Positions 1-39,578 of a stretch of 39,578 nt of DNA are shown piece after piece. The notes under the pieces were generated by a model. That model searched no databases. It was not told the DNA's origin and worked only from the letters and a program-made list of their open reading frames with translations. The stretch's first letter is position 1. Every line of letters starts with the position of its first letter. The DNA comes from Escherichia phage mEp234. Made by a program: the position numbers and the translations under genes. The DNA is taken from sequence record NC_019715.1; one strand, written 5' to 3'.

Positions 1-486
1 ATGGCAGATAAACGAATCCGTTCCGACAGTTCGGCGGCAGCGGTTCAGGCCATGAAAAATGCAGCTGTGGACACCATCGATCCGCCGTCCCATGCAGGTT
101 TGGAGAAAAAAGCCGAACCATTCTGGCATGACAATATCAGATCGAAAGCTCTGGACAGCTGGACGCCTGCCGACCTTCTAGCCGCCGTAGAACTTGCTAA
201 TAATCAGCTCTATATCACCGTTTTACGCAAGGATTTACGCAAAGAAGAGCGCATACGCGGGGAGGAGCGAGACGAAGGCCTTATAAAAGACCTCCGCAAG
301 CAAATTGTTGAGCTACAACGAACTATCCTGGCTCAGCGCCGCGACCTCCAGATCCACTCCCACGCAACCAACGGCGAAAGTCGCGACCAGAAGAAACGTA
401 ATCAGAACGATCGTGATGCACGGAATACCAAAAACGAGCATCAGGACCAGGACGATAACCTGATCGCCTTTCCCAAGCACGGATAA
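1..486 (+). CDS. terminase small subunit (P27-like)
   Basis: ATG at 1, 161 aa, immediately upstream of terminase large subunit; charged C-terminus. Its SD (AAGGTG 39565-39570) lies at the end of the window, 8 nt before position 1 if the sequence is circular. Confidence 0.65.
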   Translation: MADKRIRSDSSAAAVQAMKNAAVDTIDPPSHAGLEKKAEPFWHDNIRSKALDSWTPADLLAAVELANNQLYITVLRKDLRKEERIRGEERDEGLIKDLRKQIVELQRTILAQRRDLQIHSHATNGESRDQKKRNQNDRDARNTKNEHQDQDDNLIAFPKHG

Positions 487-492
487 AAGACT

Positions 493-2007
493 ATGACGCG
501 AGGTGAGCGTGTAATAGCGTTCATTGAGCGCTTTTGCATCGTGCCAGAAGGCAAGCTTATCGGCCAACCTATGCGGTTGGACCCCTTTCAGAAAGATTTC
601 ATCCTGGCGGTTTACGACAATCCAGCCGGAACGGATATGGCGATCCTCTCCATCGCCCGAAAAAATGGTAAGACTGGCCTGATTGCCGGAATTCTGCTGG
701 CTCACCTGGTGGGGCCTGAAGCGGTGCAGAACACGCAGATTGTCAGCGGTGCACTCAGCCGGGAACAGGCGGCCATCGTTTTTAACCTCGCGGTGAAGAT
801 GGTTAACCTGAACCCCAAGCTGCAGGAGATTGTGCACATTACGCCCAGCGGCAAAAAGCTGATCGGCCTGCCGTGTAACGTCGAATACAAGGCTTTATCC
901 GCAGAAGGTAAGACGACGCACGGCCTTTCCCCCATTCTGGCCATTCTCGATGAAACAGGGCAGGTTAGGGGCCCGCAGGATGATTTTATCGATGCAATAA
1001 CTACGGCGCAGGGGGCTCATGAAAACCCGCTGCTAATCGTTATCAGTACGCAGGCAGCAAACGATGCTGACCTGCTTAGCATCTGGATTGATGATGCGGT
1101 CAAATCGAAAGATCCGCACATCGTGTGCCACGTTTATGAAGCGCCAAAAGACGCTGATATCAGTAAACGCGAGTCCTGGCTGGCTGCGAACCCGGCACTG
1201 GGAACATTCAGGTCAGAAAAAGACATGGCGCGCCAGGCTGAGAAAGCTGGCCGAATGCCAAGCTTCGAAAACACCTTCCGAAACCTCAACCTCAATCAGC
1301 GCGTGTCTACCGTATCGCCGTTTATCTCCCGCAGCGTGTGGGAGCTTTGCGGAGAGATGCCGATTAACACCCCGAGGAAGTGGTACGCGGGGCTGGATCT
1401 GTCAGCCAGGAACGACTTAACGGCGCTGGTTATCGCTGGTGAAGCAGATGATGGTGTCTGGGATGTTTTCCCCTTCTTCTGGACACCGCAAAAGACTCTT
1501 GAAGAGCGAACCAAAACGGACCGAGCACCCTATGACGTTTGGGTGAGGGAGGGGCTGCTGCGCACCACGCCAGGAGCTTCGGTGGATTACTCATTCGTCG
1601 TTGCGGATATCGCTGAAATTATCGGTGATTTCGACCTTACCTCGATGGCTTTTGACCGCTGGCGCATTGACCAGTTCAGGAAGGATGCCGATGCCATTGG
1701 GCTGAGCCTCCCGCTGGTCGAGTTCGGCCAGGGCTTTAAGGATATGGGGCCAGCTGTAGACACGCTGGAGTCTCTGATGCTTAACGGGCGCGTGAGGCAT
1801 GGCATGCACCCCGTATTAACGATGTGTGCTGTGAATGCGGTGGTGGTGAAAGATGCTGCTGGCAACCGCAAGCTCGATAAATCCAAAGCAACGGGCCGTA
1901 TTGATGGCATGGTCGCAATGACAATGTCCGTTGGTGCTGCTAATGGGGAAGTTACCGAACAGGGTGGTGACTTCGACGACTTCATTTTCCGACCGCTGAG
2001 CATGTGA
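493..2007 (+). CDS. terminase large subunit (HK97-type)
   Basis: 504 aa ORF, ATG 493; Walker-B-like ILAILDETGQ; position between small terminase and portal; size matches HK97-type TerL. Confidence 0.85.
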   Translation: MTRGERVIAFIERFCIVPEGKLIGQPMRLDPFQKDFILAVYDNPAGTDMAILSIARKNGKTGLIAGILLAHLVGPEAVQNTQIVSGALSREQAAIVFNLAVKMVNLNPKLQEIVHITPSGKKLIGLPCNVEYKALSAEGKTTHGLSPILAILDETGQVRGPQDDFIDAITTAQGAHENPLLIVISTQAANDADLLSIWIDDAVKSKDPHIVCHVYEAPKDADISKRESWLAANPALGTFRSEKDMARQAEKAGRMPSFENTFRNLNLNQRVSTVSPFISRSVWELCGEMPINTPRKWYAGLDLSARNDLTALVIAGEADDGVWDVFPFFWTPQKTLEERTKTDRAPYDVWVREGLLRTTPGASVDYSFVVADIAEIIGDFDLTSMAFDRWRIDQFRKDADAIGLSLPLVEFGQGFKDMGPAVDTLESLMLNGRVRHGMHPVLTMCAVNAVVVKDAAGNRKLDKSKATGRIDGMVAMTMSVGAANGEVTEQGGDFDDFIFRPLSM

Positions 2008-23191: not shown

Positions 23192-23386
23192 TCATCTATA
23201 TGTTTTGTACAGAGAGGGCAAGTATCGTTTCCACCGTACTCGAACGGCGCTGTAGTTTGTCCATTCTTTCTTTTTTGTCTGGCGATCGTAATACTGAACG
23301 CCAGCACGGATGTTGAATCCGATATTTTCCCCGGCCTGAAACTCTCTTGCGGGCTTGTTTAGTCTTACAGTAATCGAATGTGCCAT
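23192..23386 (-). CDS. hypothetical protein translationally coupled to erf
   Basis: 64 aa from ATG 23384-23386, which overlaps the erf stop (TAATG) with SD GGAG; the track's longer 94-aa version overlaps erf and was not used. Sits where P22 carries abc genes, but the sequence is not recognised. Confidence 0.4.
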   Translation of the reverse strand: MAHSITVRLNKPAREFQAGENIGFNIRAGVQYYDRQTKKKEWTNYSAVRVRWKRYLPSLYKTYR

Positions 23387-26873: not shown

Positions 26874-27299
26874 TTATTTTCTAGATGATGTTGGGGACCA
26901 AGGTAACGTTATAGTATCTAACACTGTGTTTTTGAACATATTTTCAAAAACTGTTTTTGTACATACATATACATAATTTTCAAAAAACCAAGCATTTTCA
27001 TTATAAAAATCCTCAGTTACTTCTTCATCGAGGTCACACTCAAATGTTAGTGTCAAGGTAGCCTCTGCCTTGAACAATACATCCTCACCATCATCAAAAT
27101 CTTTTTTATCGCGAGGGAAACCAGTTATCGATGGCTTAACTTCAATAAAGAGCCAATTTCCATCTTCATCTTTTTGAGGAACAACGTGATGCTCAGAAAA
27201 TTTTAAGCTATATTTTCCGCCTTCAGAATTATCACTGTCGTCGATAAAAAGGGAAGAACCCTCGAGATCAAATCCCTTAAAGCGAATTTTATCAAGCAT
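26874..27299 (-). CDS. acidic protein of unknown function, translationally coupled to hicB
   Basis: 141 aa from ATG 27297-27299, overlapping the hicB stop (TGATG); AT-rich coding sequence; no recognisable motif; the track ORF extends to an upstream TTG. Confidence 0.5.
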   Translation of the reverse strand: MLDKIRFKGFDLEGSSLFIDDSDNSEGGKYSLKFSEHHVVPQKDEDGNWLFIEVKPSITGFPRDKKDFDDGEDVLFKAEATLTLTFECDLDEEVTEDFYNENAWFFENYVYVCTKTVFENMFKNTVLDTITLPWSPTSSRK

Positions 27300-27772
27300 C
27301 AATGTGGCACTCCGTTGTCTACTGAAACTTCCCAATAGGTCTCTTCTGTACGTCTACGGGATGAGAAGAAAGTAACTTCTCTAACATCCCTCGGTTTTTC
27401 AAAGTGGTAGTGAACCTCTTTTTTCCCATTAACTGACTCACTGACAGCCTGTTTTACATAATCGTTTAAAGTCATATTCTTAGCTTTAGCAGCTAAATAT
27501 GCTTTTTTATGCAGGGATTCACCTATCCGGATGTTAAACGAACCACTCATTGTCTTATCTGGAGATTTTCCTATCTCTTCACAAGTGGAGAGGTAATCGT
27601 CCACGGCCTCCTCAAAGGCTGCACGGAGTTCTGCAACCGTTGCACCCTCATAAGTGACGAGATCATTTATACATTCGAGTTTTCCATGCATCACCCCATC
27701 TTCAAATGAAATGCTGGAGCTACCATAGTAACCTTTGTATTTCATCAAGTTATTCATGATCATCAATCTCAT
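27299..27772 (-). CDS. hicB: HicB-family antitoxin with C-terminal extension
   Basis: N-terminal MKYKGYYGS...DLVTYEGATVAEL...VDDYL (HicB fold), RHH-like IRIGESLHKKAYLAAKAKNMTLNDYV, then ~45 extra residues; four in-frame ATGs between 27745 and 27772. Confidence 0.7.
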   Translation of the reverse strand: MRLMIMNNLMKYKGYYGSSSISFEDGVMHGKLECINDLVTYEGATVAELRAAFEEAVDDYLSTCEEIGKSPDKTMSGSFNIRIGESLHKKAYLAAKAKNMTLNDYVKQAVSESVNGKKEVHYHFEKPRDVREVTFFSSRRRTEETYWEVSVDNGVPH

Positions 27773-28004
27773 CTAACAGCTGTTTAACTTCTTCCAAGAC
27801 GTACCTTTTGAGGGTGTTTTCAGGATGAGGCTCATGAAAAATGACCAATCTATCAACACGTTGGTTGTAAAATTTACGGCCAGAACCTCGTTTAGCATTC
27901 AAAAGCTTGAAGCCATACTGGTTCATGAGAGTAACGAACTCATCCCAAGTAAAATTTTTGGGTAAGCCGTCTAACTTTGACTTTAGCTTTTCCTTTCTTC
28001 CCAC
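27750..28004 (-). CDS. hicA: HicA/YcfA-family toxin-like protein
   Basis: 84 aa (GTG start); ...FKLLNAKRGSGRKFYNQRVDRLVIFHEPHPENTLKRYVLEEVKQL matches the HicA fold pattern as recalled; directly upstream of hicB. Confidence 0.65.
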   Translation of the reverse strand: MGRKEKLKSKLDGLPKNFTWDEFVTLMNQYGFKLLNAKRGSGRKFYNQRVDRLVIFHEPHPENTLKRYVLEEVKQLLDEIDDHE

Positions 28005-38749: not shown

Positions 38750-38887
38750 ATGGCAGAGATTATTCTCATGACTGAAGAACAGAAATTCCAGTTAGAGATT
38801 TACAAACTGGTCATGAACCAGAACGCCGCCGTGCATGGAGACTGGCATGAACAAAGAGCCCCGCGTATATGGCAGCCGATGGGATAA
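38750..38887 (+). CDS. 45-aa ORF upstream of and overlapping HNH (uncertain)
   Basis: MAEIILMTEEQKFQLEIYKLVMNQNAAVHGDWHEQRAPRIWQPMG; SD GGAG 6 nt upstream; translated by hand. Confidence 0.25.
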   Translation: MAEIILMTEEQKFQLEIYKLVMNQNAAVHGDWHEQRAPRIWQPMG

Positions 38888-39188
38888 GGCCCGTCTGCGT
38901 TTTCTCCAGCAGCACCCACTGTGTGTGATGTGCGAGCAGCAGGGGCGCATAACACCAGCAACGGTGGTCGACCATATCGTGCCCCACAAACTGAAAGATG
39001 CGCTTAAGTCAGGTAACCCTCTGGCCATATCGAAAGCACAGCTCCTGTTCTGGAGTAAAGAGAACTGGCAGCCACTGTGCAAAGCGCATCATGACTCAAC
39101 GAAACAGAGAATGGAGAAGAGCGGCGCGGTAATCGGTTGTGATGCCAACGGCTACCCGCTCGATCCTGCGTCTCACTGGAGCACGTAA
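38835..39188 (+). CDS. HNH endonuclease (terminase-associated, HK97 gp74-like)
   Basis: HNH signature (C..C...VDHIVPH...N...LCKAHH); position just before cos and the terminase genes; likely start ATG 38847 (SD GGAG). Confidence 0.85.
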   Translation: METGMNKEPRVYGSRWDKARLRFLQQHPLCVMCEQQGRITPATVVDHIVPHKLKDALKSGNPLAISKAQLLFWSKENWQPLCKAHHDSTKQRMEKSGAVIGCDANGYPLDPASHWST

Positions 39189-39391
39189 TGAAAGACCTCA
39201 TCATTGAATACCGAGACGGTAAGTTTGTTCAGCTGGCGATTGATGGCGTGGAGATGAAGCGCGTAACGTCTATCCAGTTCTCCCACACCTTAGGCGAGGA
39301 CGTACCGACATTGACCGTGTCAGGACATGTGTGGTCCGAGTATGGGAAAGGCGATCACAAACTCGAACAGGTAGACAAACATTCGGCATAG
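39188..39391 (+). CDS. hypothetical small protein
   Basis: 67 aa, ATG overlaps the HNH stop (TAATG). Confidence 0.45.
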   Translation: MKDLIIEYRDGKFVQLAIDGVEMKRVTSIQFSHTLGEDVPTLTVSGHVWSEYGKGDHKLEQVDKHSA

Positions 39392-39578
39392 CGCGGCGGC
39401 GGCAAGTAGATTATCTATCATGTGAAATCATTTCAAATGCAACGATATCAAATGAGAATGAATCGCATTCAGGGCAGGGGGGGGGGGATCAAATCTTCAA
39501 AACCTTTGCCCCAAATGACCGCCGCCAAAGTTTGAATTTAACGCTAACCCGATTTTTTTAGTTTTAAGGTGTTGACAT
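39392..39578. other. candidate cos / packaging region
   Basis: GC-rich CGCGGCGGCGGC (39392-39403), an 11-G run (39477-39487) and inverted CCGCCGCC (39509-39516) lie between the last late gene and the terminase SD. Confidence 0.4.

Follow-up and report, generated by a model that had tools for sequence, protein, structure and literature searches.

A G·C tract at constant spacing from the predicted cohesive ends of phage mEp234: a candidate left arm of HK97-type cos

The cos Region of mEp234

The window analyzed here is the complete genome of Escherichia phage mEp234 (NC_019715.1; 39,578 nt), and this text concerns its right-hand end (positions 39,392–39,578), the interval between the last late gene and the terminase genes with which the record begins. 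This interval very probably is the cohesive-end (cos) region of an HK97-type temperate siphophage, in a record opened at the start codon of the small-terminase gene, terS, and not at the physical ends: a gp1-type small terminase (TerS) and a large terminase (TerL) are encoded downstream, an HNH endonuclease gene lies upstream, and both a TerS binding site and the position of a 10-nt end are present (Table 1). Taken as such, the region belongs to the HK97-type cos family and is an ordinary find with an explanation already at hand. The fresh point is an 11-G run within it, which appears to be the local form of a G·C tract whose spacing from the cut is constant among related phages of several bacterial phyla.

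Table 1. Features of the mEp234 cos region and its flanking genes. Coordinates are window positions; offsets are counted from the top-strand cut, with +1 at 39530; a slash marks a nick.
Feature	Position	Strand	Basis or remark
G·C tract, contains G11; candidate cosQ-like upstream arm	39474–39488	+	−56 to −42 from the top-strand cut; conservation, fixed register
AAATCTTC, A-rich word after the tract	39491–39498	+	AAA at −39 to −37 conserved; relatives AAATC(C/T)CT or AAAAGTTC
Invariant A-C/C across the predicted bottom-strand nick	39518–39520	+	nick 39519/39520; columns −12 to −10 in 30 diverse representatives
cosN, predicted 10-nt 3' cohesive end CGCCGCCAAA	39520–39529	+	identity with HK97, HK022 and HK75 termini
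TerS minimal binding site CTAACCCGATTTTTT, functional equivalent of cosB	39544–39558	+	+15 to +29; identical to the HK97 site
Shine-Dalgarno AAGGTG for terS	39566–39571	+	separated by 7 nt (TTGACAT) from the ATG at position 1 in end-joined DNA
terS, small terminase	1–486	+	161/161 aa identical to HK97 gp1; PDB 8POP/6Z6E (E~1e-102); PHROG 5601
terL, large terminase (ATPase and nuclease)	493–2007	+	Pfam PF03354 and PF20441; full-length match to HK97 TerL, PDB 6Z6D, 1143 bits
HNH endonuclease, HK97 gp74 homolog	38835–39188	+	Pfam HNH PF01844; PHROG 2323, 3e-53
67-aa ORF, conserved, function not assigned; last gene before cos	39188–39391	+	PHROG 10282, 2e-47; HK75_58
GC-rich CGCGGCGGCGGC, clade-specific, not assigned to cos	39392–39403	+	begins directly after the TAG of the 67-aa ORF

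How do the two ends of this record relate to one another? The preliminary description took the window for a circularly closed phage genome opened at the terminase start. For the record this is borne out: a second mEp234 record in prophage order, PV340539.1, contains the window's last 779 and first 1,500 bases as an exact substring, and the junction is crossed in one piece by 9 E. coli chromosomes and upward of 30 IMG/VR contigs, with more than 100 prophage or viral contigs reading across it, so the ends abut. PV340539.1 is also the top match (100% identity) among the 37 phage records of the HK97/HK022 group matched by a megablast query with the last 779 bases; over the whole record, it is the window permuted circularly at ~21,098, where it adjoins the integrase, plus an insertion sequence (IS) of 1,222 bp that sits between window positions 23242 and 23243 and is annotated with IS407-like transposase open reading frames (ORFs), with 0 mismatches elsewhere. 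The chance that the window is instead a piece of a prophage, or a faulty assembly with ends that do not meet, is negligible: no point in its favor was found, the junction is continuous in all the DNA just listed, and the integrase and att lie mid-window (~21.1–22.5 kb). The choice of the terS ATG as the first codon of the record is a convention of the depositors (the records of HK106, mEpX1, mEpX2, HK544, HK446, and HK542 finish at the identical base) and says nothing about virion DNA; the latter should be linear, with 10-nt 3' ends at 39520–39529, and "circularly closed" thus describes the joined record, not the packaged molecule. The module as a whole is scarce in E. coli, occurring in 12 of 5,426 complete genomes.

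Joining the ends also brings AAGGTG in front of terS. Its assignment as the terS Shine-Dalgarno sequence across the join stands, with its position corrected from 39565–39570 and its gap to the ATG from 8 to 7 nt (Table 1); it would act as a ribosome-binding site solely where a transcript of joined DNA runs across cos. The Shine-Dalgarno region, AAGGTGTTGACATATG, is identical in E. coli-type relatives.

Where would this DNA be cut? The records of HK97, HK022, and HK75 all end at the base corresponding to window 39529 and start at 39530, with terS at position 50 in each, and the HK75 record labels its final 10 nt, equal to window CGCCGCCAAA, as the cos site. HK97 virion DNA carries 10-nt 3' overhangs, with the cut between −1 and +1 (PMC9410871, PMC11331095). 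The DNA of mEp234 is identical to that of HK97 from about −30 through the terS ATG, overhang and TerS site included. By this homology the top strand would be nicked at 39529/39530 and the bottom strand at 39519/39520, since the 3' overhang is written on the top strand; the top-strand nick would fall 49 nt before the window end. The overhang sequence diverges among relatives: what stays fixed is the A-C/C motif across the bottom-strand nick, and several records end close to this motif: HK140 and HK633 stop at ...ATGAC, Pm34 was opened at GGAC/CGCC, and the record of Pantoea AH07 ends ...CTGAC.

Some sister records appear to report the ends of virion DNA in spite of themselves. Those of HK140 and HK633 lack exactly the 10 nt of CGCCGCCAAA, window homology stopping at ...ATGAC; both ends of HK633 (NC_019719) were examined, and the overhang is missing. 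HK140 (NC_019710), in addition, opens with 44 nt that are not of phage origin, CCTATCCCCTGTGTGCCTTGAGAGACGCCGACTACTACGTCTCT, and closes with their exact reverse complement. The first 20 nt of this extension are presumably the 454 Titanium primer-B sequence, and the extensions look like residual sequencing adaptor; the ends of both records match what blunt-ended, adaptor-ligated virion DNA would give. A mosaic joint at cos in these two phages was considered and rejected: only the 10-nt overhang is missing, a record artefact. A contig labeled as part of a Paenochrobactrum metagenome-assembled genome (CANQXU010000220.1) starts exactly at the base homologous to cos +1 (GTTTCATTTTAACGC...), which is consistent with reads from linear virion DNA; its taxonomic label is odd for an enterobacterial-type module. 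In the "circular" record of Providencia phage PSTRCR_117lys (MW358929.1), CTCTCGCC runs directly into GGTTAGAAAAC, and ~40 nt around the cos core, present in all relatives, are missing; this gap is probably an assembly collapse at the physical ends.

The site that TerS reads lies on the other side of the cut. In HK97, the minimal TerS site was mapped to +15 to +29 by electrophoretic mobility shift assays and cryo-electron microscopy (Chechik et al., PMC11331095): contacts run from Arg7 to T16 and from Arg128 to the G of the +21 C:G pair, and the A-tract is essential. With +1 at 39530, T16, the C:G pair at +21, and the A-tract fall exactly on the site listed in Table 1. This site is intact in 19/19 loci picked by TerS protein alone, except for one A-for-G substitution in one locus. 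The predicted cosB equivalent of mEp234 is therefore this element, downstream of the cut and between cosN and the Shine-Dalgarno sequence, not the GC-rich element upstream.

A Conserved Left Arm in Phages With HK97-Type TerS

Relatives were gathered without using the tract, either by TerS protein, taking one genome per species, or by the 17-nt TerS site alone in IMG/VR. All 18 loci chosen by TerS protein that have enough upstream sequence carry 8–12 G in the 15 columns from −56 to −42; this G count is at least as high as in any other 15-nt window in ~3 kb in 18/18 loci and strictly higher in 11/18. TerS identity falls as low as 53% in this set, which covers Enterobacter, Pantoea, Rahnella, Serratia, Dryocola, Buttiauxella, Symbiopectobacterium, Providencia, Yersinia, and Gilliamella. 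Among sequences chosen by the TerS site, ~107 of 111 distinct ones have the tract in the same register, and the other four are chance hits in coding DNA. Across 30 diverse representatives, the invariant columns are G−47 and G−46 in the tract, A−38 and A−37 in the A-rich word, A−12, C−11, and C−10 at the bottom-strand nick, and the TerS site; there are 0 indels between the tract and the TerS site, and the intervening sequence varies. The distance from the cut to the terS ATG ranges from 47 to 60 nt, whereas that from the tract to the cut is fixed. A conserved element thus lies upstream of the cut, on the last-packaged end and at a fixed distance, as would be expected for the position of a cosQ-like element. 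The tract was also considered as a second TerS-like site; this was rejected, since its GGG-plus-A-tract arrangement has a polarity opposite to that of the real site.

The G11 homopolymer itself (39477–39487, exactly where the preliminary description had put it) occurs once in the window versus 0.01 times expected from dinucleotide shuffles and is the sole run of at least 8 G. Its length is variable: among 76 E. coli-type sequences, 23 have 7 G, 32 have 8, 14 have 9, 3 have 10, and 4 have 11, and the named phages HK97, HK106, and HK75 have 9, 10, and 13, giving an overall range of 7–13 within ~99% identical flanks. The 11 G of the window sit in the upper tail of this distribution, and the minimum among close relatives is 7. 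All change in length is taken up on its upstream side, its 3' edge keeping a constant position with respect to cos. PV340539 likewise has 11 G and, carrying an IS, is a separate determination, so an error in the present record is unlikely. The run had been regarded as a slipped-strand or sequencing-error hotspot: the length polymorphism agrees, and the view of a mere hotspot is not supported, given the second record with 11 G and a G·C tract conserved beyond the clade. The G11 appears, rather, to be both things at once, a slippage-prone polymorphic homopolymer and the local form of a conserved G·C tract that, with the A-rich word and A-C/C, makes up a left arm of cos.

Does anything else depend on the run? 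A 76-aa ORF (39331–39561) and a 38-aa coding sequence (CDS) annotated in PV340539 (39422–39535, spanning the cos cut) read through it; both frames break in relatives with 7–13 G, and for this reason neither is probably a gene. As no conserved ORF depends on the run and a promoter scan is empty there, it does not have the makings of a phase-variable contingency locus. Counting both strands, the 39.6 kb contain a single canonical G-quadruplex (G4) motif (four runs of 3 or more G), at 39472–39487; it exists because this isolate has 11 G, and relatives with 7–10 G lose it. A canonical G4 is found in 2/30 and 1/25 diverse relatives with two TerS families, and a G-quadruplex was rejected as a conserved property on these counts. 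In the same 30 and 25 representatives, the 15 tract columns hold 8–13 G in every case. A search of Rfam gave no family match at E ≤ 1, and RNAalifold on 20 diverse relatives found no conserved fold (−2.18 kcal/mol, 0 compensatory pairs).

The Left Arm Beyond HK97-Type TerS

The contig IMGVR_UViG_2563366924_000002 joins the window's left side to a different terminase. It is a mosaic prophage in which P27-type HNH, TerS, and TerL genes flank a remnant of the HK97-type module (the HNH C-terminus, the 67-aa ORF, a G8 tract, and the cos core), with the right-hand recombination joint just after CGCCGCCTAACCTC. Its TerS belongs to a P27-type family of 480 IMG/VR loci that includes mEp235, CharmingMan, and Proteus Pm34 and has no detectable similarity to HK97 TerS; TerL is 28% and HNH 41% identical. 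The right arm in this family differs, with CGCAGGTTAGAAAACTTTTTT at about +17 to +37. The left arm equals that of HK97-type phages in register: a G tract, AAA at −39 to −37, and ACCGCC at −12 to −7. Since TerS is unrelated yet the left arm is identical in register, the left arm appears to track the shared components (TerL, HNH, and structural proteins) and the right arm to track TerS.

The same arrangement recurs at a greater distance. In Gordonia phage Eviarto, GGGGGGCGGG ends 43 nt from the record end, just as the window's last G is at −43, and actinobacterial relatives have GGGGGTAGGGGG followed by TCGAAATCyCTG. Bacillus phages phi105 (cos annotated) and phi4I1 end in ...GAGACCGC... and carry, 28 nt upstream, CCCCCCACCC then TTAAATCCCT, a C-tract: the spacing is equal and the strand opposite, an arrangement that holds in 43/65 distinct relatives. 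Clostridium phage phi3626, with a mapped 9-nt 3' end, has GGGGAGGGGTAGGG then CAAAAAGTT, ending 39 nt from the tip, in DNA with 12% C. When a tract is defined as at least 9 of 13 positions with the same base, it is present upstream of terS versus in control coding windows taken from the same loci at 100% vs. 5%, 97% vs. 19%, 83% vs. 0.3%, and 89% vs. 17% in four groups. We found no earlier description of a conserved left arm in the searchable literature, key subscription papers being outside our reach and absence hence not proven.

A Possible Mechanism

Since mEp234 TerS is identical to that of HK97, TerL matches over its full length, and the cos DNA is identical, the HK97 mechanism can be transferred. 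In HK97, TerS clamps at +15 to +29 and stalls TerL, TerL and gp74 cut the two strands in a staggered way, and +1 is where packaging sets out (PMC11331095, PMC9410871, PMC10359639). In mEp234, a TerS nonamer would thread concatemeric or circular DNA and clamp on 39544–39558; TerL, aided by the HNH protein encoded upstream, would nick the two strands to leave the 10-nt 3' ends; packaging would run rightwards from 39530, terS first, and the next cos would close the round. The tract would then remain on the last-packaged end, 43–56 bp from the tip.

What could a tract in this position do? The fixed spacing, the independence from TerS, and the invariant A-C/C suggest that the tract serves the terminal cut or the retention of the end. 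A novel reading, to which we give a probability of roughly 0.4, is that the tract and the A-rich word, 28–30 bp upstream of A-C/C, form an undescribed third sub-site of HNH-dependent 3'-overhang cos, from enterobacterial to actinobacterial, Bacillus, and Clostridium phages and whichever TerS they use; TerL, HNH, or portal would read it, either to set off or finish the terminal cut or to keep hold of the last-packaged end, with the bottom nick directed by sequence and the top nick measured by distance. That the readers are the shared components (TerL nuclease, HNH, and portal), not TerS, acting in a cosQ-like manner at the terminal cut or in last-packaged-end retention, is a tentative proposal made by analogy. 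The structure of an oligo(dG)·oligo(dC) duplex would account for the tolerance of either strand orientation, and a conserved bottom-strand and variable top-strand nick fits two nicks made differently, which is among the alternatives left open in PMC11331095.

Several points weigh against these assignments. The in vitro work on HK97 used a −312 to +472 fragment and reported the downstream TerS site only (PMC9410871, PMC11331095). The tract tolerates 7–13 G and interruptions and could be a loosely constrained structural feature. The physical ends of mEp234 are placed by transfer from relatives, and the position of the cut rests on homology. Sequences within each group are related, so the counts overstate independence and the real observations are a handful of groups; in two GC-rich groups, the control windows reach 17–19%; and the Bacillus tract is on the other strand, with a minority of loci below threshold, which makes a strand-specific mechanism uncertain. 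The record ends of Geobacillus E2 and Lactobacillus Lrm1 are not at cos and give no information on the tract.

Alternative Explanations

A rather unlikely but serious competitor holds that the G-run is a neutral slipped-strand or error hotspot in non-coding DNA with no packaging role, its conservation a matter of shared ancestry and composition. Lengths that vary from 7 to 13 between nearly identical flanks are what this would produce, no ORF relies on the run, several sister records come from homopolymer-error-prone sequencing (presumably of 454 type, as the adaptor-like ends of HK140 suggest), and tracts turn up in 17–19% of GC-rich control windows. Yet the separately determined, IS-bearing mEp234 record repeats the 11 G and no relative falls below 7; the tract is kept where TerS is 53–55% identical or unrelated and the surrounding DNA is unalignable; and its register to the cut stays fixed even in AT-rich Clostridium and Bacillus phages. 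Action of the G-rich block in RNA or in a single strand of the late transcript, through RNA structure, a G-quadruplex, or a translational element of terS, is improbable. The late transcript must cross the region for terS expression, the genome's only canonical G4 motif is here, and herpesvirus pac1 signals are reported to form G4 (PMC13595911), but neither the Rfam search nor the consensus fold (−2.2 kcal/mol) lends support, the G4 motif is rare among diverse relatives, the Bacillus phages have a C-tract on the same transcribed strand, and it is the distance to the cut that is constant, not that to the terS ATG.

The preliminary description looked for cos elsewhere in the interval, in a cosN/cosB pair made of CGCGGCGGCGGC and its partial inverse CCGCCGCC and recognized by terminase. 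The former is exactly where it had been reported; the latter lies at 39519–39526, not 39509–39516, and as a cos candidate it was well chosen, for it overlaps the predicted cohesive end. An exact 8-nt inverted repeat does exist (39395–39402 and 39519–39526, arms 116 nt apart), which is the attraction of the pair. It is highly improbable nonetheless. CGCGGCGGCGGC occurs in 27–29 of 113 distinct relatives, only in the clade carrying the 67-aa ORF; of 76 relatives that share the cos core, 47 lack the inverted pair, as does every relative with a changed core, and no relative with an altered core has a compensating change upstream. With 7 occurrences of CCGCCGCC or its complement in the window versus 1.41 expected, a single 8-nt inverted pair is unremarkable, and the TerS site mapped by experiment lies on the downstream side of the cut. 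Long-range pairing of the GC-rich element with the cos core, whether as a hairpin or as an inverted repeat, was rejected as not conserved.

Comparison With Known Packaging Signals

HK97 cos is the closest relative: alongside the DNA identity around the cut, the TerS and TerL matches, and the HNH gene immediately upstream, the differences are small, namely 11 G in the window versus 9 in HK97, a few substitutions further upstream, and a different frame at the HNH C-terminus. The HK97 record opens at the left cohesive end, and the window at the terS ATG. Phages with P27-type TerS (mEp235, Pm34), together with phi105, phi4I1, phi3626, and Eviarto, share the G·C tract, AAATCyCT or AAAAGTT, a ~28-nt spacer, and (G)ACCGC at the terminus; in P27-TerS, Gram-positive, and actinobacterial phages, TerS and the right arm are unrelated, the overhang is 7–10 nt and of other sequence, and the phi105-type tract is on the opposite strand.

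Phage lambda offers the same tripartite logic: an upstream element on the last-packaged side, a nick site, and a downstream site for the small terminase. The upstream element of lambda lies ~25–30 bp from the cut, versus 42–56 bp for the tract here. As related in PMC10359639 and PMC7617512, termination in lambda requires cosQ, and mutations in the portal suppress those in cosQ (Wieczorek et al., 2002), which makes cosQ the best functional analogy for the G·C tract. Unlike mEp234, lambda has a 12-nt 5' overhang, a gpA/gpNu1 terminase of another family, integration host factor (IHF) sites, and no HNH. The lambda cosN, GGGCGGCGACCT, has no match within 2 mismatches in the intergenic region, nor is any lambda right-end or cosQ sequence present there; mEp234 cos is not lambda-type. 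An IHF-like site beside the tract was considered and dropped: there is no consensus match by eye, and an ATCAA word is absent in distant relatives.

Herpesvirus pac1 combines a T-rich core between G-rich tracts with cleavage at a fixed distance, and pac2 has CGCGGCG beside a T-rich stretch (PMC13595911). The G-rich tract and the fixed-distance cleavage are reminiscent of the arrangement described here, and the terminase and capsid lineages are related to those of HK97; on the other hand, the CGCGGCG of the window is clade-specific, the G4 motif is not conserved in the phage set, and the DNA signals are compared by resemblance alone, so that the likeness is offered as an analogy, with no claim of homology. 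Finally, the G-run resembles the contingency tracts of phase variation in being a long G run of polymorphic length between near-identical genomes, and differs in lying in no conserved ORF or demonstrated promoter spacer and in having its 3' edge fixed relative to cos.

Flanking Genes and Other Sequences

In HK97, gp74 stimulates terminase cleavage at cos (PMC9410871, PMC13595911). The true start of its mEp234 homolog is likely the ATG at 38847 (MNKEPRV...). The two proteins are identical over the first ~100 aa; owing to a frame difference, HK97 gp74 (NC_002167, 39054–39413) has the tail ...ATRSILRLTGARNERPHH, and the window protein ends in ...GYPLDPASHWST, in agreement with distant relatives (e.g., Dryocola ...GYPLDPNSHWK). 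The 67-aa ORF that follows is intact yet unannotated in HK97 and is absent from more distant relatives, and for that reason is not considered part of cos.

Between this ORF and the tract, the window has a near-palindrome at 39410–39439, CATGTGAAAT/ATTTCAAATG, containing TGAAATCATTTCA. The HK106 record annotates a minus-strand promoter-like TTGAAA-N15-GATAAT at window 39410–39436, a consensus match only, and a scan of the interval found no terminator or promoter. TGAAATCAT-like words are enriched upstream of the tract (12–15 of 30 diverse relatives versus at most 6 in shuffles); their position varies and several lineages lack them, and they were not assigned to cos. Elsewhere in the window (26874–28004, minus strand), three small genes between N and cI, labeled HicA toxin, HicB antitoxin, and "HicC chaperone" in PV340539, possibly form a three-component toxin-antitoxin cassette in the immunity region.

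Implications

For annotation, the true genome of mEp234 would end 49 nt inside the record and not at the record ends, several sister records bear end artefacts (a missing 10-nt overhang, leftover adaptor), and the CDS that PV340539 places across cos is probably spurious. For packaging, HK97 is the structural model for cos-dependent systems, and the 2024 PNAS paper states as open how its 3' overhang arises and what besides TerS defines termination. A TerS-independent left arm, running from the G·C tract to A-C/C, would be a concrete ~50-bp target for mutation in the existing in vitro system, and would aid the prediction of cos ends in the many HK97-like prophages and satellites that lack known termini.

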